A stretch of DNA of 64,000 nucleotides from Methanomassiliicoccaceae archaeon (GCA_963728405.1 CAVSJV010000003.1:32001-96000), one strand, 5' to 3'. Numbered from the stretch's first letter, positions 38,674 through 42,995 are shown. The notes: a model not told the origin generated them from the letters alone. Program-made: numbers and translations.

Positions 38674-38714
38674 GGACCCTGGCCTATCGGGGCTAGGCAA
38701 AGGTCCTTTTTTTA
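38674..38714 (+). terminator. Hairpin plus oligo-T terminator after tmk
   Basis: ggacc...ggtcc stem followed by a T run. Confidence 0.5.
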
Positions 38715-38740
38715 TGTACGGCATGCATTGCCGCATACCA

Positions 38741-39556
38741 ATGGTCGCGGACAAGAAGAATGAGAGGACCGACCCGTGCATCGAGTGCATCTCCAAGGAA
38801 AGGGGATCCCACGGAGATGCCTGGAGAAATGTTCACGGCTCATATTTCTCTGACCACGACATCGCCGCGCCGTTCCTGGACGATATCGTGGCCGCGCTCA
38901 ACACCGTCCGGCCGGACGTTATTGCCGACATCGGGGGAGGGACCGGATTCATCCTCCGCGAGCTATCGAACAGGGAAGGTGTTCGAGGGACCAGACTGCT
39001 CAATGTCGATGCGTCCCAGGAACAGCTGGAAGTATGCAGGGGGAGTGGGCTGGAACGCCGGTGCAGTTCGGTCATGGAGATCGAGCGGGGGGACCTGGCG
39101 AGCGAGAATGAATCGTTGACCATCATCAGCCGGTCGGTGCTGCACTATTTCGGACGGGAGGGGCAGCCCTCCTTCCTTCAGAAGTTGCGCTCCCTCCTCC
39201 TGCCGGGAGAGATGTTCATCCATCAGCCCGCCTGCTTTGCCACCCCTGAACTGCGGTCCTGTATGAACGAACTCTATCCGCTCATGGGGGTGGACAAATA
39301 CTATTCTACCCCCCAGGACCTGGAAGAGATGCACCATCGGGCCGGTTTCGATGTACTTCGCTCCCTGCCCGGCCCACCGCTGGACCTGAGATCGGAGGAC
39401 CTGGCCGTTCGCTACGGGCTCGATTCGGAGAGAGTGGAGGAGCTGGTCGATGTCATCCGGCGGTATGGTCTGGACCGGGACGGCGTTTTCGATGTCAGGC
39501 CCGGCGGGTTCCGGACCGAGTTCACCTACCGCATCCTGACGCTGAGGGCGGTTTGA
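38741..39556 (+). CDS. Class I SAM-dependent methyltransferase
   Basis: IADIGGGTG, NVDAS, SRSVLHY, L.PG motifs. Confidence 0.85.
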   Translation: MVADKKNERTDPCIECISKERGSHGDAWRNVHGSYFSDHDIAAPFLDDIVAALNTVRPDVIADIGGGTGFILRELSNREGVRGTRLLNVDASQEQLEVCRGSGLERRCSSVMEIERGDLASENESLTIISRSVLHYFGREGQPSFLQKLRSLLLPGEMFIHQPACFATPELRSCMNELYPLMGVDKYYSTPQDLEEMHHRAGFDVLRSLPGPPLDLRSEDLAVRYGLDSERVEELVDVIRRYGLDRDGVFDVRPGGFRTEFTYRILTLRAV

Positions 39557-39686
39557 AGAGGCCTTCATTTTGCTTCGCGTTTTCATCAACGTCAACTATA
39601 AATCTCCCGCTACGGGTCTTGCTGTCATCCATTCGTGCGTGGGGAAAATTCCTCTCACCAGGGAGGGAGGAAGCAGCGCCCTTTAT

Positions 39687-40931
39687 GATAAGTGTAAAGG
39701 CAATGGTAATATTACCTGACGGAGATACAACAGCGATGCAACGCACCATGCGCCTCTGGCTTGAGACAAGGCACGAAGATGCTTTAGCCCTGCTCAGAAC
39801 CATGGAGGAGTACACACAGGCGTTCGACATCGTGGCCGAGTGGGGATACCGGAATCACTCGAACAATAAGATAGACGCCCACAAGAATACCTATCGGACG
39901 GTCAGGCAACAGATTCCTAACCTCCCCTCATCCCTGGTCCAATGCGCAAGGGATTGCGCCTGCGAGGCGCTGAGAGGAATGAAAATGAATGGCTCTGCGT
40001 ACCAGCCTAGGCGGAATCCCCATGCTGCTCTAAGATACAACAAGTGCGTTGCATCTGTCTATTTGGAGTCAGGATATGTTACTCTTGCCACAGTATCAGG
40101 TCGTGTCAAAGTCACCTTCATTATCCCGGATTACTTTCATAAGTATGATGGCTGGAAAGTAAGATCCTCTAACTTGATCTACGACCGAAGCTCCAAGACC
40201 TTCTACCTCTGCATAAATCTTGAGACTGATAAAATACCCGATACGACAGTAGAGAAAGGCGTTCTTGGTATCGACCGGGGCATCAAAAACGTCGCCGTTA
40301 CCTCGGATAATCGATTCTTCAACTCCAAGGCGATCAACAACGTGCGCGGCAGGTACGCATACTTGCGCGGGCAGCTTCAGTCAAAAGGCACTCCCTCCGC
40401 AAAACGAAAATTAATGAGATTGAGCGGGCGAGAGAGACGGTTCAAGGCTGACGTGAACCACAGGATCGCTAAGGATATTGTTAACACCCCTTACGGGGTG
40501 TTCGTCCTGGAGGACCTGGCCCACATCGTGGAGAATAGGTTATATAGGAATAAAGGAAGCATAACTCGACATAGGAAGAACCAGAAATTAAGTAATTGGT
40601 CTTTCTACCAGTTCGAGGAGTATCTCCATTATAAGGCAGAGGAAAGAGGCAAGACTGTCATCTTGGTGGACCCGTCCTACACCTCGCAAACGTGTCCGAG
40701 GTGCGGCTGCGTTCATCGGGAGAACCGCCACGGCTCTTCCTTCGAGTGCATCGAATGCGGCTACCAGCTGCACTCGGATCTCGTTGCCTCCAGGAACATC
40801 GCTCAGCTTGGTATATCTGAACTGAGCAGGCTTCTTGTCAACAAGCCAATCGTAGCGTGCCATGACATCAAGGTTGGTTACCTTGGGAGAGGACAGTTAC
40901 AAGCCCTATCGCCGGAGGTGGGGTAGTTGAC
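39687..40931 (+). mobile_element. IS200/IS605-family tnpB-only element (IS1341-like)
   Basis: tnpB gene, lower GC than the flanks, right end agttacaagccc...ggggtagttgac. Left junction inferred after TTTAT (39682-39686). Confidence 0.75.
39736..40926 (+). CDS. tnpB: RNA-guided endonuclease TnpB
   Basis: RuvC I GIDRG, RuvC II VLEDL, zinc finger TSQTCPRCG..CIECG, RuvC III HSDLVASRNI. Confidence 0.95.
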   Translation: MQRTMRLWLETRHEDALALLRTMEEYTQAFDIVAEWGYRNHSNNKIDAHKNTYRTVRQQIPNLPSSLVQCARDCACEALRGMKMNGSAYQPRRNPHAALRYNKCVASVYLESGYVTLATVSGRVKVTFIIPDYFHKYDGWKVRSSNLIYDRSSKTFYLCINLETDKIPDTTVEKGVLGIDRGIKNVAVTSDNRFFNSKAINNVRGRYAYLRGQLQSKGTPSAKRKLMRLSGRERRFKADVNHRIAKDIVNTPYGVFVLEDLAHIVENRLYRNKGSITRHRKNQKLSNWSFYQFEEYLHYKAEERGKTVILVDPSYTSQTCPRCGCVHRENRHGSSFECIECGYQLHSDLVASRNIAQLGISELSRLLVNKPIVACHDIKVGYLGRGQLQALSPEVG

Positions 40932-42129
40932 GCATCCTTCCGAGAGCATCCGGAGCGCCAAGGGACGGCAGCTTGAGGGTAAGAACATCGTCCTGGGGAT
41001 GACCGGAAGCATCGCCGCGGTGGAGTCCTTCGAGCTGGTGCGGGAGCTCATCCGCCATGGTGCGGACGTCCAGGTGGTGATGACCGCCGAGGCGGCCAAG
41101 CTGATGACCCCCTACACCATGGAGTTCGCCAGCGGCCATCGGGTCATCACCGAGCTGACCGGGGCGACCGAGCACATCAGCCTGCTGGGCGACTATCCCG
41201 GAAGGGCGGACCTGTTGCTGGTATCGCCGTGCACGGCGAACACCATTTCCAAGATGGCCCTGGGCATCGACGATACGCCGGTCACGACCATGGCCACGGT
41301 GGCCATCGGGTCGAGGTTGCCGGTGCTGATCGCCCCCGCCATGCACCTGGCCATGTACGAGCACCCCGCGGTGCAGAGGAACGTCGAGGCGCTGAAGAAG
41401 ATGGGCGCGGCGTTCATCGGTCCGACGGTCCAAGGCAAGAAGGCCCGGGTCGCCACCGTCGATGAGATCGTAGAGCGGGTCATCGTCCAGTTCGCTGATG
41501 CCGACCTCAAGGGAAAGAAGGTGCTGATCATCGGCGGCTCCTCCGAAGAACCGATCGACCAAGTAAGGGTGATCACCAACAACGGTACGGGCGAAACGGC
41601 AGTCCAGATCGCTCAGGCCGCGTCCGAGCGGGGGGCCGACGTGGAGCTTTGGACCGGGCGCATGACGGTACCGGTGCCCTCCGGCCTGAAACGCCGGACC
41701 TTTCGACGGGTGGAGGACCTCTTCCTCATGCTTGAGTCGATCGACCACGACGCGGTAATTGTTCCAGCATCTCTCTCGGACTATGCACCAGTGGAGACCA
41801 AGGGGAAGATCCCTTCCGGACGGAAGGAGCTGGAGATCAAGCTGAAAGGCCTGCCCAAAGTGCTGCCAGCCCTTAGGAGGCGGACCAGGGTGCTGGTAGG
41901 GTTCAAGGCCGAGGTGGGGCTAGCAGAAAAGGAACTGCTCCGCCGGGCCAAGGTTCGCCTGGACGAATATCATCTGGATATCATCGTGGCCAACGACCTG
42001 AACAATGTGATGCCATCGCGCACCAAGGCCGTGCTCATCACATCCAAGGGCGAACAGGTCCCCTTTGAAGGGAGCAAAAGAGAGCTGGCCGACCAGGTCC
42101 TGGACGAAGTGTTGAAGGTCCTGGAATGA
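40927..42129 (+). CDS. coaBC: Bifunctional PPC decarboxylase/PPC synthetase; starts at TTG
   Basis: GMTGSIAA, PCTANTISK, PAMH..MY, EPIDQVRVITN..TG, LVGFKAE, IVAND. Confidence 0.95.
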   Translation: MTHPSESIRSAKGRQLEGKNIVLGMTGSIAAVESFELVRELIRHGADVQVVMTAEAAKLMTPYTMEFASGHRVITELTGATEHISLLGDYPGRADLLLVSPCTANTISKMALGIDDTPVTTMATVAIGSRLPVLIAPAMHLAMYEHPAVQRNVEALKKMGAAFIGPTVQGKKARVATVDEIVERVIVQFADADLKGKKVLIIGGSSEEPIDQVRVITNNGTGETAVQIAQAASERGADVELWTGRMTVPVPSGLKRRTFRRVEDLFLMLESIDHDAVIVPASLSDYAPVETKGKIPSGRKELEIKLKGLPKVLPALRRRTRVLVGFKAEVGLAEKELLRRAKVRLDEYHLDIIVANDLNNVMPSRTKAVLITSKGEQVPFEGSKRELADQVLDEVLKVLE

Positions 42130-42995
42130 GAGCGATCGGGTTCTGTCCTGGCCACCTCACCGGATTCTTCTTTCCCTGCGAGCATGATGACCCCCTTCGC
42201 TCGGGCTCTCGCGGAGCAGGGCTGTGCGTGGACAAGGGCGCCACTAGCACTGTCACCGTTTTCGAAGGGCGGGGCGAGGTCGTCGTCACCATCAACGGCC
42301 GGGAAGCAGCGGCGCCGGTCACCCGTTCCACCGTGGCCTGGCTAATGGAGGGAAGGCCGTTCGACCTGACCATTGACACGGTAATGACCCTGCCGGTCAG
42401 CGCGGGGTTCGGTATGAGCGCCGCCGGTGCGTTGTCGGCCGCCTTCGCCCTGGCCGAGGCCTTGGAGCTGCCGCCGGAGAAGGCTTTCGAGGCGGCCCAC
42501 CGGGCCGAGCTTGGTCACCGGACGGGGCTGGGAGACGTGCCCGCCCTGACGAGAGGGGGCATGACCTTCCGCAAGAAAGAAGGCCTGCCGCCCTACGGGC
42601 AGGTGGACCGAATAACCGATCGGCTGGACATCATTGCCGCTGTAGTGGGTGAGGGCATGCACACCGCCAACGTTCTTGGGAACGAAGAACAGAGGTTCAG
42701 GATCGACCAGGCCGGAAGAGAATGCTACATGTCCTTATGCCGCGAACCGACCGTGGATAACTTCTTCCGACAGAGCCGCCAATTCACCGAAATGATCGGC
42801 ATCGCCACCCCCCGGATCATGAGGGCCCTGAGGGACGTGGACGCCTTCGGCCATGGATCGATGATCATGCTCGGCAACGCGGTCTTCGCCACCGGGGACG
42901 TGGACGCCATCGACCGGGCGTTACAGGCCTACGGCCCGACCTATCGGCTCTCCCTCGATACCAAGGGGCCGCGGGTCCTGGATGTCGAGTTCTGA
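42126..42995 (+). CDS. Pantoate kinase (GHMP family)
   Basis: PGHLTGFF, GSRGAG, GFGMSAA, AHRAE...TGLGDV; follows coaBC. Confidence 0.9.
   Translation: MRAIGFCPGHLTGFFFPCEHDDPLRSGSRGAGLCVDKGATSTVTVFEGRGEVVVTINGREAAAPVTRSTVAWLMEGRPFDLTIDTVMTLPVSAGFGMSAAGALSAAFALAEALELPPEKAFEAAHRAELGHRTGLGDVPALTRGGMTFRKKEGLPPYGQVDRITDRLDIIAAVVGEGMHTANVLGNEEQRFRIDQAGRECYMSLCREPTVDNFFRQSRQFTEMIGIATPRIMRALRDVDAFGHGSMIMLGNAVFATGDVDAIDRALQAYGPTYRLSLDTKGPRVLDVEF

Follow-up and report, generated by a model that had tools for sequence, protein, structure and literature searches.

The gene coaBC of a Methanomassiliicoccaceae archaeon carries, inside its start codon, a tnpB-only insertion sequence (IS) of the IS200/IS605 family, and the gene is probably now translated from a TTG codon formed by the end of this element, with the aid of a Shine-Dalgarno (SD) sequence that the element also supplies. 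The arrangement lies in the window G000:C3:32001-96000, i.e. the whole 64-kb stretch of DNA analysed, along which all coordinates are counted. The source assembly, G000, is a metagenome-type assembly (93.75% complete, 4% contamination) with strain-variant contigs. A preliminary description of this DNA had already proposed a tnpB-only IS200/IS605 element that splits the coaBC start codon as AT|G without a duplication, and this is borne out by the ATG CAT CC start of the gene in relatives and by the two junctions described below.

Between a methyltransferase gene (38714-39556) and coaBC, the window contains a single long open reading frame (ORF) that opens at 39553 or 39685 and ends in TAG at 40926. 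The product of the ORF 39685..40926 is TnpB, as it matches Pfam OrfB_IS605 (36.8 bits, cut-off 30.5) and Cas12f1-like_TNB (87.4 bits, cut-off 26.3), the NCBIfam profile guided_TnpB (182.7 bits, cut-off 100) and TnpB and Cas12f chains of the PDB, with E-values down to 4.9e-20. The ORF that follows, 40927..42129, encodes 400 aa with the bifunctional CoaBC architecture (Pfam Flavoprotein at residues 19-186 and DFP at 194-370, in one ORF) and scores 339.8 bits against the NCBIfam equivalog coaBC_dfp (TIGR00521, cut-off 219.7), the profile matching from residue 16. The gene is present as a single copy in G000, and its protein is 91% identical to the CoaBC of the closest relative, G003. The TAG of tnpB (40924-40926) is followed directly and in frame by TTG ACG CAT CCT TCC, i.e. 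by coaBC minus the AT of its start codon; the shared frame with one TAG in between, noted in the preliminary description, is thus seen in the sequence 40924-40931. The main components of the locus are as follows.

39629..40931, + strand: the whole tnpB-only IS200/IS605-family element, 1303 nt, without a TnpA gene.
39629..39735, + strand: left end (LE) of the element, 107 nt, containing TTTAT (39682-39686), ATG 39685 and the TATA-like TAATATTA (39707-39714).
39736..40926, + strand: tnpB, 396 aa plus TAG stop, intact, with the motifs GIDRG, VLEDL, HSD..SRNIA and CxxC..CxxC.
40927..42129, + strand: coaBC in its present form, TTG ACG plus native codons 2-399 plus stop, 400 aa, beginning M-T-HPSESIR.

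The motifs listed for tnpB we take to be the RuvC catalytic residues and the zinc finger. Alignments with the TnpB proteins of 20 homologous loci of full length begin at residues 1-3 when the protein is read from ATG 39736, and therefore this codon is the conserved tnpB start, preceded at 29 nt by the TATA-like TAATATTA. The ATG at 39685, from which the gene had previously been read, falls within the LE.

The left boundary of the element follows from the coaBC loci of relatives, 32 of which were examined (29 from genomes and 3 from metagenomes); 24 were read by regular expression and the other 8, which could not be resolved, were dropped. In 24 of the 32 loci coaBC starts with ATG CAT CC, giving MHP(S/V)E..IR, and hence the coaBC of the window lacks exactly the AT of its ATG. 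All 24 also have a TATA-like hexamer that begins at -27 to -30 of the coaBC ATG, which leaves no room for a leader. A TATA box at such a spacing without a leader is the geometry of a leaderless archaeal gene. The corresponding elements are found in the window upstream of the insertion.

39597..39603, + strand: TATA-like box TATAAAT, the orphaned native coaBC promoter, 22 nt upstream of the former start codon (39605-39626, measured from where TAAATC ends).
39624..39628, + strand: target motif (TAM) GTCAT, flanking the insertion on the left and ending in the A and T that once began the coaBC ATG.

Positions 39597-39628 of the window read TATAAATC, 22 nt and AT, and G003 has, at the same spacing, GTTAAATC, 22 nt and ATG. 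The 32 nt located 5' of the AT at 39627-39628 agree with the sequence upstream of G003 coaBC at 20 of 32 positions, which ranks first among the 3478 AT dinucleotides on the + strand, the next-best site in the window reaching 17/32; as a yardstick, the coaBC upstream regions of members of the genus score 14-23 of 32 against G003. The empty site of G003 is GCCGTCAT|GCATCC (also read as ...GCCGTCATGCATCCTTCC), and the 47 nt after TCAT are identical to those of the window. Excision of 39629-40931 from the window gives ...GCTGTCAT|GCATCCTTCC. Because the promoter spacing, the match to G003 and the empty site of a second copy of the element (copy 2, below) agree, we place the left junction at 39628|39629. 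The preliminary description had set this junction at 39686/39687, after TTTAT, and had named beforehand an empty-site comparison as the refuting test; that comparison gave 39628|39629 and the motif TCAT. The AT at 39685, on which the former placement relied, matches the G003 coaBC upstream at only 7/32 positions. Deletion of 39687-40931 does yield ATGCATCC, as had been reported, and so restores a coaBC start; any upstream ATG would supply the AT, however, and the poor upstream match speaks against this particular one. Likewise, the element was held to be a frame-preserving insertion of 1245 nt, or 415 codons. At 1303 nt it is not a multiple of three, and the codon count therefore came out by accident, through the use of 39685, an ATG in the tnpB frame, as the reference point.

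The right junction reads ...GGGGTAGTTGAC|GCATCCTTCC in the window, and the element terminates in the following motif.

40927..40931, + strand: transposon-end motif (TEM) TTGAC, the final 5 nt of the element, of which TTG (40927-40929) is the probable new coaBC start codon.

Support for this end comes from copy 2. Contig C9 (13.9 kb; locus L002) is collinear with C17:39750-53864 (L141) at 94.7-99% identity, bar 1296 nt, which are copy 2 (C9:7914-9209) and are absent from C17 at 49154|49155. The filled site reads ...GGGAGATCAT|ATTCATATATGC...GGTAGTTGAC|GTCACAGC and the empty site on C17 reads, exactly, ...GGGAGATCAT|GTCACAGC. Judged from this alignment, C9 is a strain variant or a duplicate of part of C17, and the two contigs present a filled/empty polymorphism within one assembly; identity between them is 99% to the left of copy 2 and 94.7% to its right, the divergence jumping exactly at the IS. 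At this independently fixed boundary copy 2 ends ...GAGGTAGTTGAC, with the same TTGAC as the window element, and three more distant homologues end in ...G(C/T)TGAC/CTGAC and then diverge. The right end at 40931, as first described, is thus upheld. There is no target-site duplication in the window (compared with G003) or in copy 2 (C9 compared with C17), and the two sites are GTCAT|...TTGAC|G and ATCAT|...TTGAC|G, respectively. Between the TAM (G/A)TCAT and the TEM TTGAC there are mismatches at positions 3 and 5, the relation described for ISGst elements in passages of Meers et al. (PMC10055086).

Copy 2 has an LE of 112 nt up to the conserved tnpB ATG, against 107 nt in the window, and an ATAAAT at -30 of this ATG. 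Copy 2 is degraded, with two in-frame stops in its tnpB, and is 69% identical in nucleotide sequence to the element of the window; no closer copy of the element was found in G000. Copy 2 separates a gene for an HdrD/GlpC-like Fe-S protein, at its stop codon, from a dihydropteroate-synthase-like gene, at its ATG. Only 1 nt lies between the two genes in the empty allele (TGA C ATG), and the insertion splits this tight operon junction. The reversed LE of copy 2 adds an in-frame ATG two codons upstream of the second gene (L002:1206-1217, - strand; MNMIS...). The CAT of the copy 2 target is the reverse complement of the ATG of the dihydropteroate-synthase-like gene, and both TCAT copies therefore sit at start codons. 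Systematic targeting of start codons was considered and set aside, as two events with survivorship bias are not significant, no expectation having been computed.

Apart from its position, the element is an ordinary tnpB element of the IS200/IS605 family, as judged by its protein, its TAM-directed insertion without duplication, the TAM-TEM relation and the structure of its right-end RNA. The Y1 transposase TnpA (PF01797) had 0 matches in the 93.75%-complete G000, and so nothing present could excise the element, which is non-autonomous and at present probably immobile. Since tnpB-only members commonly lack TnpA, this absence is compatible with membership of the family. Across the order, TnpB hits at E<=1e-30 were obtained in 33 of 261 genomes, the best outside G000 having 51% amino acid identity, and a search of genome contigs gave 21 loci with a best identity of 50%. 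A left-end motif, TTTCGG...CCTCTCACC, is shared by several distant homologues and in part by the window; it was too weak and was not used. Three homologues with about 50% identity (L037, L039 and L054, from G244, G243 and G229, which belong to two genera of family f3) lie directly 3' of one conserved gene with the C-terminus ...FAVADAY..WYDV.EEEA..., and their left ends share TGCATGTAA; they owe this common position either to an ancient insertion passed on by descent or to a site preference. In L051, L052 and L053 the tnpB stop is the TGA within CTGAC, and the ORF reaches the last 4 nt of the element, so that the end motif doubles as a stop codon.

The following features are found in the last 138 nt before the right junction and in the sequence directly beyond it.

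40794..40931, + strand: structured RNA region, the predicted omega-RNA scaffold, made up of 3' tnpB plus the right end, in which 40903-40924 form the terminal hairpin.
40914..40920, + strand: SD-like GGAGGTG, 6 nt before the TTG, in the loop and 3' strand of the terminal hairpin.
40932..40951, + strand: predicted guide/target segment of the omega-RNA, corresponding to coaBC from the G of codon 1 to codon 7; preceded by TCAT, it makes up the target at the empty site.

RNAalifold predicted 39 pairs over five right ends, 17 of them with compensatory changes, and the model closes with the hairpin 40903-40924 followed by a single-stranded end motif. This predicted structure looks as an omega-RNA scaffold should look. 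A search of 39300-41200 against Rfam (E<=1) returned no omega-RNA or intron family, and the single-sequence RNA fold of 40700-40951 was not significant (z = -1.33). The guide segment is assigned by analogy with the known TnpB mechanism, in which, according to passages of PMC10055086, the guide arises because transcription of a TnpB element continues beyond its right end into the adjoining DNA.

The GGAGGTG sequence is complementary to the 3' end of the 16S rRNA, ...GGATCACCTCCT, and its GGAGG lies at -13 of the TTG. Genome-wide, SD 5-mers before the first ATGs of 1479 ORFs are most frequent at -13 to -9, where each position has 34-74 of them, the background being about 8. A strong SD combined with TTG opens a long ORF, where the upstream frame is short, in 48 of 416 cases, compared with 31 of 655 for CTG as control. 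On these counts, both SD-led starts and TTG starts are used in G000. From the TAG up to the conserved GxTGS motif (codon 25), no ATG, GTG or TTG occurs other than the TTG at 40927. The suggestion, made from the outset, that the IS end supplies a TTG restart has therefore become the best explanation of the locus, with GGAGGTG 6 nt upstream of the only usable start.

Contigs from other metagenome runs indicate that the insertion is no artefact of the assembly. Record 4 of X2 spans the left junction (39450-39761) with 1 difference, and record 3 of X1 spans the right junction (40372-41493) with 58 differences. X1 represents a variant strain diverged by about 7%, in which the 117 nt of 40821-40937, including GGAGGTG, TAG and TTG, are unchanged. 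Within the X1 coaBC (40927-41385) there are 31 differences in 459 nt, of which 23 are at codon position 3 and 26 are silent, leaving 5 amino acid changes in 153 codons. These counts show, at the level of substitutions, that coaBC is under purifying selection and that the insertion persists in a diverged strain. The tnpB segment 40467-40628 has diverged to a similar extent in X1 (8/162, compared with 31/459 in coaBC; Fisher p=0.46), in keeping with an insertion older than the split of the strains. The last 298 nt of tnpB (40629-40926) differ at a single position (1/298, compared with 8/162 just upstream; p=0.001), against a divergence of 5-7% in the neighbouring sequence, which suggests that a region that would code for both protein and RNA is very strongly constrained. 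This quiet segment and the structured RNA region described above coincide. No joint that skips the element was found in the contigs of X1, X2 and X3, which cover only parts of the stretch, so that this result says nothing about the absence of empty alleles. Among the coaBC loci on metagenome contigs (60 loci) the closest relative had 77% identity, and none was of the same species.

We propose the following series of events as the most probable account of the locus. A non-autonomous element, consisting of an LE, tnpB with its omega-RNA and a right end, would have inserted 3' of (G)TCAT without duplication, separating precisely the T from the G in the start codon of a leaderless coaBC. The promoter of the gene, TATAAAT (39597-39603), would thereby have been orphaned, so that it now points into the element. 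Transcription of coaBC, and of the gene behind it, would then proceed by read-through from the TATA-like box of the LE, from the orphaned coaBC promoter or from both. The gene behind coaBC is the following.

42126..42995, + strand: GHMP-kinase gene, pantoate-kinase-like (Pfam GHMP_kinases_N); its start overlaps the coaBC stop (ATGA 42126-42129); intact.

The top NCBIfam match of this kinase is pantoate kinase, at 181.5 bits and under the cut-off of 380. As its start overlaps the stop of coaBC, the kinase would share the operon and depend on the same read-through, so that at least two CoA-pathway genes (coaBC and the pantoate-kinase-like gene) appear to be dependent on read-through out of the element. 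Translation of coaBC would begin at the TTG composed of the terminal TTGAC and the orphan G (TTG ACG CAT...), helped by GGAGGTG 6 nt upstream and possibly by termination-reinitiation at the abutting tnpB TAG, and would yield a protein one residue longer, M-T-HPSE in place of M-HPSE. While the boundaries, the TAM and TEM and the intact genes are read directly from the compared sequences, we infer the transcripts, the use of the TTG and SD and any coupling.

Several observations weigh against this account. The gene upstream of coaBC differs in G003, and only about 32 nt of promoter could therefore be compared. The TCAT target motif is drawn from two insertions only, and the LEs of the window copy and copy 2 do not align in BLAST. 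The DNA folds of the window element ends are no more stable than those of shuffled sequences (z = 0.06 and -0.70), and the left end of copy 2, with an 8-bp GCTCGACA/TGTCGAGC stem, is likewise no better than shuffles (z = -1.83). The X1 contig covers the right junction (40372-41493) and not the left, the suggestion that the insertion is older than the strain split is drawn from small counts, and two short X1 contigs from the 5' portion of tnpB, with a divergence of only 1.8-2.4%, may stem from other copies. Moreover, the SD lies in the loop and 3' strand of a predicted hairpin, where it could be masked, and TTG is a weak start codon.

There is also a sharper variant of the same explanation, in which ribosomes that end at the TAG open the terminal hairpin and reinitiate at the TTG, so that coaBC would strictly depend on tnpB translation and silencing of tnpB would cost the cell CoA synthesis. 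No nucleotide separates the tnpB stop from the TTG, which makes termination-reinitiation possible, and the position of the SD within a hairpin supported by covariation, by which it is partly sequestered, would favour coupling over free initiation. Huber et al. 2023 (PMC10666635) found for Haloferax and E. coli that this process requires genes that overlap or are very closely spaced. The tnpB of the window is intact, whereas that of copy 2, which is unlinked to any gene in this manner, has its two in-frame stops. On the other hand, a 7-nt SD at optimal spacing could suffice by itself, the commonly coupled distances given by Huber et al. are -4 and -1 nt and not 0, and tnpB in X1 has accumulated 5 amino acid changes from 9 differences, which, small as these counts are, gives no sign of strong purifying selection on the protein. 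We regard strict dependence as unlikely, if worth keeping in mind.

A broader proposition is that the geometry of this subfamily (an NTCAT target, a TTGAC end, a tnpB stop 5 nt from the end and an SD-like hairpin strand) pre-adapts it to start codons, which would amount to combined addiction and drive in an essential gene. As the TAM ends in AT and the TEM is TTGAC, any insertion into TC-AT|G rebuilds TTG ACG in frame, directly behind the tnpB stop, and to this extent the property is inherent in the element. If pre-adaptation were true, the host gene would be translationally coupled to tnpB and transcribed through it, the guide would consist of the first codons of an essential gene, so that any empty allele would be cut, and the host could neither silence nor lose the element without endangering CoA synthesis. 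In all 20 homologous TnpB loci, however, at most 73 open codons follow the right end, compared with 400 in the window, and the close homologues, in an alignment of right ends, terminate in CTGAC and are without the SD-like strand. Only two insertions are known for this subfamily, and copy 2 stands immediately upstream of an ATG on the opposite strand. The earlier idea that the locus exemplifies a new way for an element to hide in an essential gene is not supported, the arrangement being present in 0/20 of the homologous loci. Pre-adaptation is therefore distinctly improbable in our judgement, and the arrangement looks like one surviving lucky hit, enabled by the geometry of the element end.

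It is also conceivable that the insertion inactivated coaBC, leaving a young pseudogene in an organism that obtains 4'-phosphopantetheine or CoA precursors otherwise. The native start codon and the link to the promoter are destroyed, and what replaces them is a weak start behind a hairpin. A frame of 400 codons that is intact and 91% identical to G003, the mostly silent differences in the strain with the same insertion (5 amino acid changes in 153 codons, with 23/31 differences at codon position 3), the lack of a second coaBC in G000 and the intact overlapping pantoate-kinase-like gene all argue for a gene in use, and we give inactivation very little probability.

The preliminary description had offered a different route to a functional protein, namely that the element occupies 39687-40931 after TTTAT, that UAG is decoded as pyrrolysine (Pyl), and that a TnpB-Pyl-CoaBC fusion carries the CoaBC activity. 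The two genes do share a frame with one TAG between them, TTTAT is the TAM of another TnpB element according to passages of PMC10055086, and PylS is found in 9 of the 10 other genomes of the genus (PylD being confirmed in the single congener searched, G008). The pyrrolysine genes expected on this reading were not found in G000, where the best score was 36.4 bits for PylS (TIGR02367, cut-off 178) and 22.4 bits for PylD (TIGR03911, cut-off 150); neither exceeded its cut-off in G000 or in the sister species G003, pylB and pylC lying outside the search. ARAGORN detected 35 tRNAs in G000, none of them with the anticodon CUA. TAG ends 244 of 1000 long non-overlapping ORFs (about 24%, by a crude ORF call), against shares of 1.6% and 11.3% in two Pyl-using Methanomassiliicoccales given in passages of Borrel et al. 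(PMC4153887). As pylB and pylC were outside the search and the genome is incomplete, absence of the system is probable rather than proven. It suggests that the lineage of G000 and G003 lost the pyrrolysine system kept by its congeners, and the organism does not appear to decode UAG. Together with the left junction at 39628|39629 and the finding that none of the 20 homologous loci is fused to its downstream gene, these results leave the fusion scarcely credible. Finally, a chimeric join between the IS and coaBC, for which a metagenome-type assembly with 4% contamination and strain-variant contigs would give some occasion, has next to no probability, because contigs of other runs bridge both junctions (X2 record 4 and X1 record 3) and a base just 7 nt beyond the junction is already variant in the X1 contig.

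The surroundings of the locus show further differences between relatives. The methyltransferase gene at 38714-39556 is not at this position in G003 or in other congeners, and in G005 a thymidylate-kinase-like gene lies directly 5' of coaBC; such differing upstream genes indicate a rearrangement, in this lineage, of the genes ahead of the coaBC promoter. The presence of mcrA in G000 shows that the organism is a methanogen, and G003 (96% complete) gave no mcrA match. Both mcrA and the Pyl-bearing congeners agree with the placement in Methanomassiliicoccales assumed in the preliminary description.

On the preferred explanation, i.e. initiation at the element-derived TTG, the locus is a natural case of a transposon with an RNA-guided nuclease that entered the start codon of a gene of an essential-cofactor pathway and was kept through strain divergence, and the gene most likely survived because a fixed transposon end happens to rebuild both a start codon and a ribosome-binding site. 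The comparison also gives the exact ends and the target motif (TCAT) of an archaeal TnpB element, for which the coaBC start of relatives is a ready-made natural target, and it provides a system for asking whether the expression of a host gene can depend on the transcription and translation of a selfish gene. As it stands, this is a single event and no demonstrated strategy. In the titles and abstract openings of the literature that we consulted, no TnpB element splitting a start codon was mentioned, which is not proof that none is in print.

What is unusual here is the site and the way in which the gene was saved, the element itself being ordinary, and this is apparent from a comparison with known systems. 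With tnpB-only elements of the IS1341 group that have an omega-RNA-guided TnpB, such as ISDra2 and ISGst2, it shares a TnpB with OrfB_IS605 and zinc-ribbon domains, a target of 4-5 nt, insertion without duplication, TEM-TAM mismatches at positions 3 and 5 and a structured RNA that extends over 3' tnpB to the right end. In contrast to these elements, TnpA is found in neither the element nor the genome, the target is (G/A)TCAT, tnpB reaches to within 5 nt of the end, and the start codon of a gene for CoA biosynthesis has been split and rebuilt by the end motif. IStrons, which are IS605-like elements fused to group I introns, likewise show that a TnpB-type element may sit in a host gene without destroying it. 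An IStron was considered and rejected for the present element, as no group I intron was matched in Rfam (E<=1, 39300-41200), and rescue would take place at translation initiation and not by RNA splicing. The classical elements IS1, IS2 and IS10 activate or rescue neighbouring genes by means of outward promoters or hybrid signals, and in the window, too, an element end would supply expression signals for the adjacent host gene. These signals, however, would act in translation, as a start codon together with an SD, the start codon being in frame with the element's own ORF and next to its stop codon, and not as a -35 box or a promoter. The arrangement also resembles archaeal termination-reinitiation as described by Huber et al. 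2023 (PMC10666635), in that a stop and a start codon are adjacent and the SD is located inside the upstream ORF; in the window, the upstream ORF is that of a selfish element, the distance is 0 nt compared with the usual -4 or -1 nt, and the coupling between tnpB and coaBC is putative.

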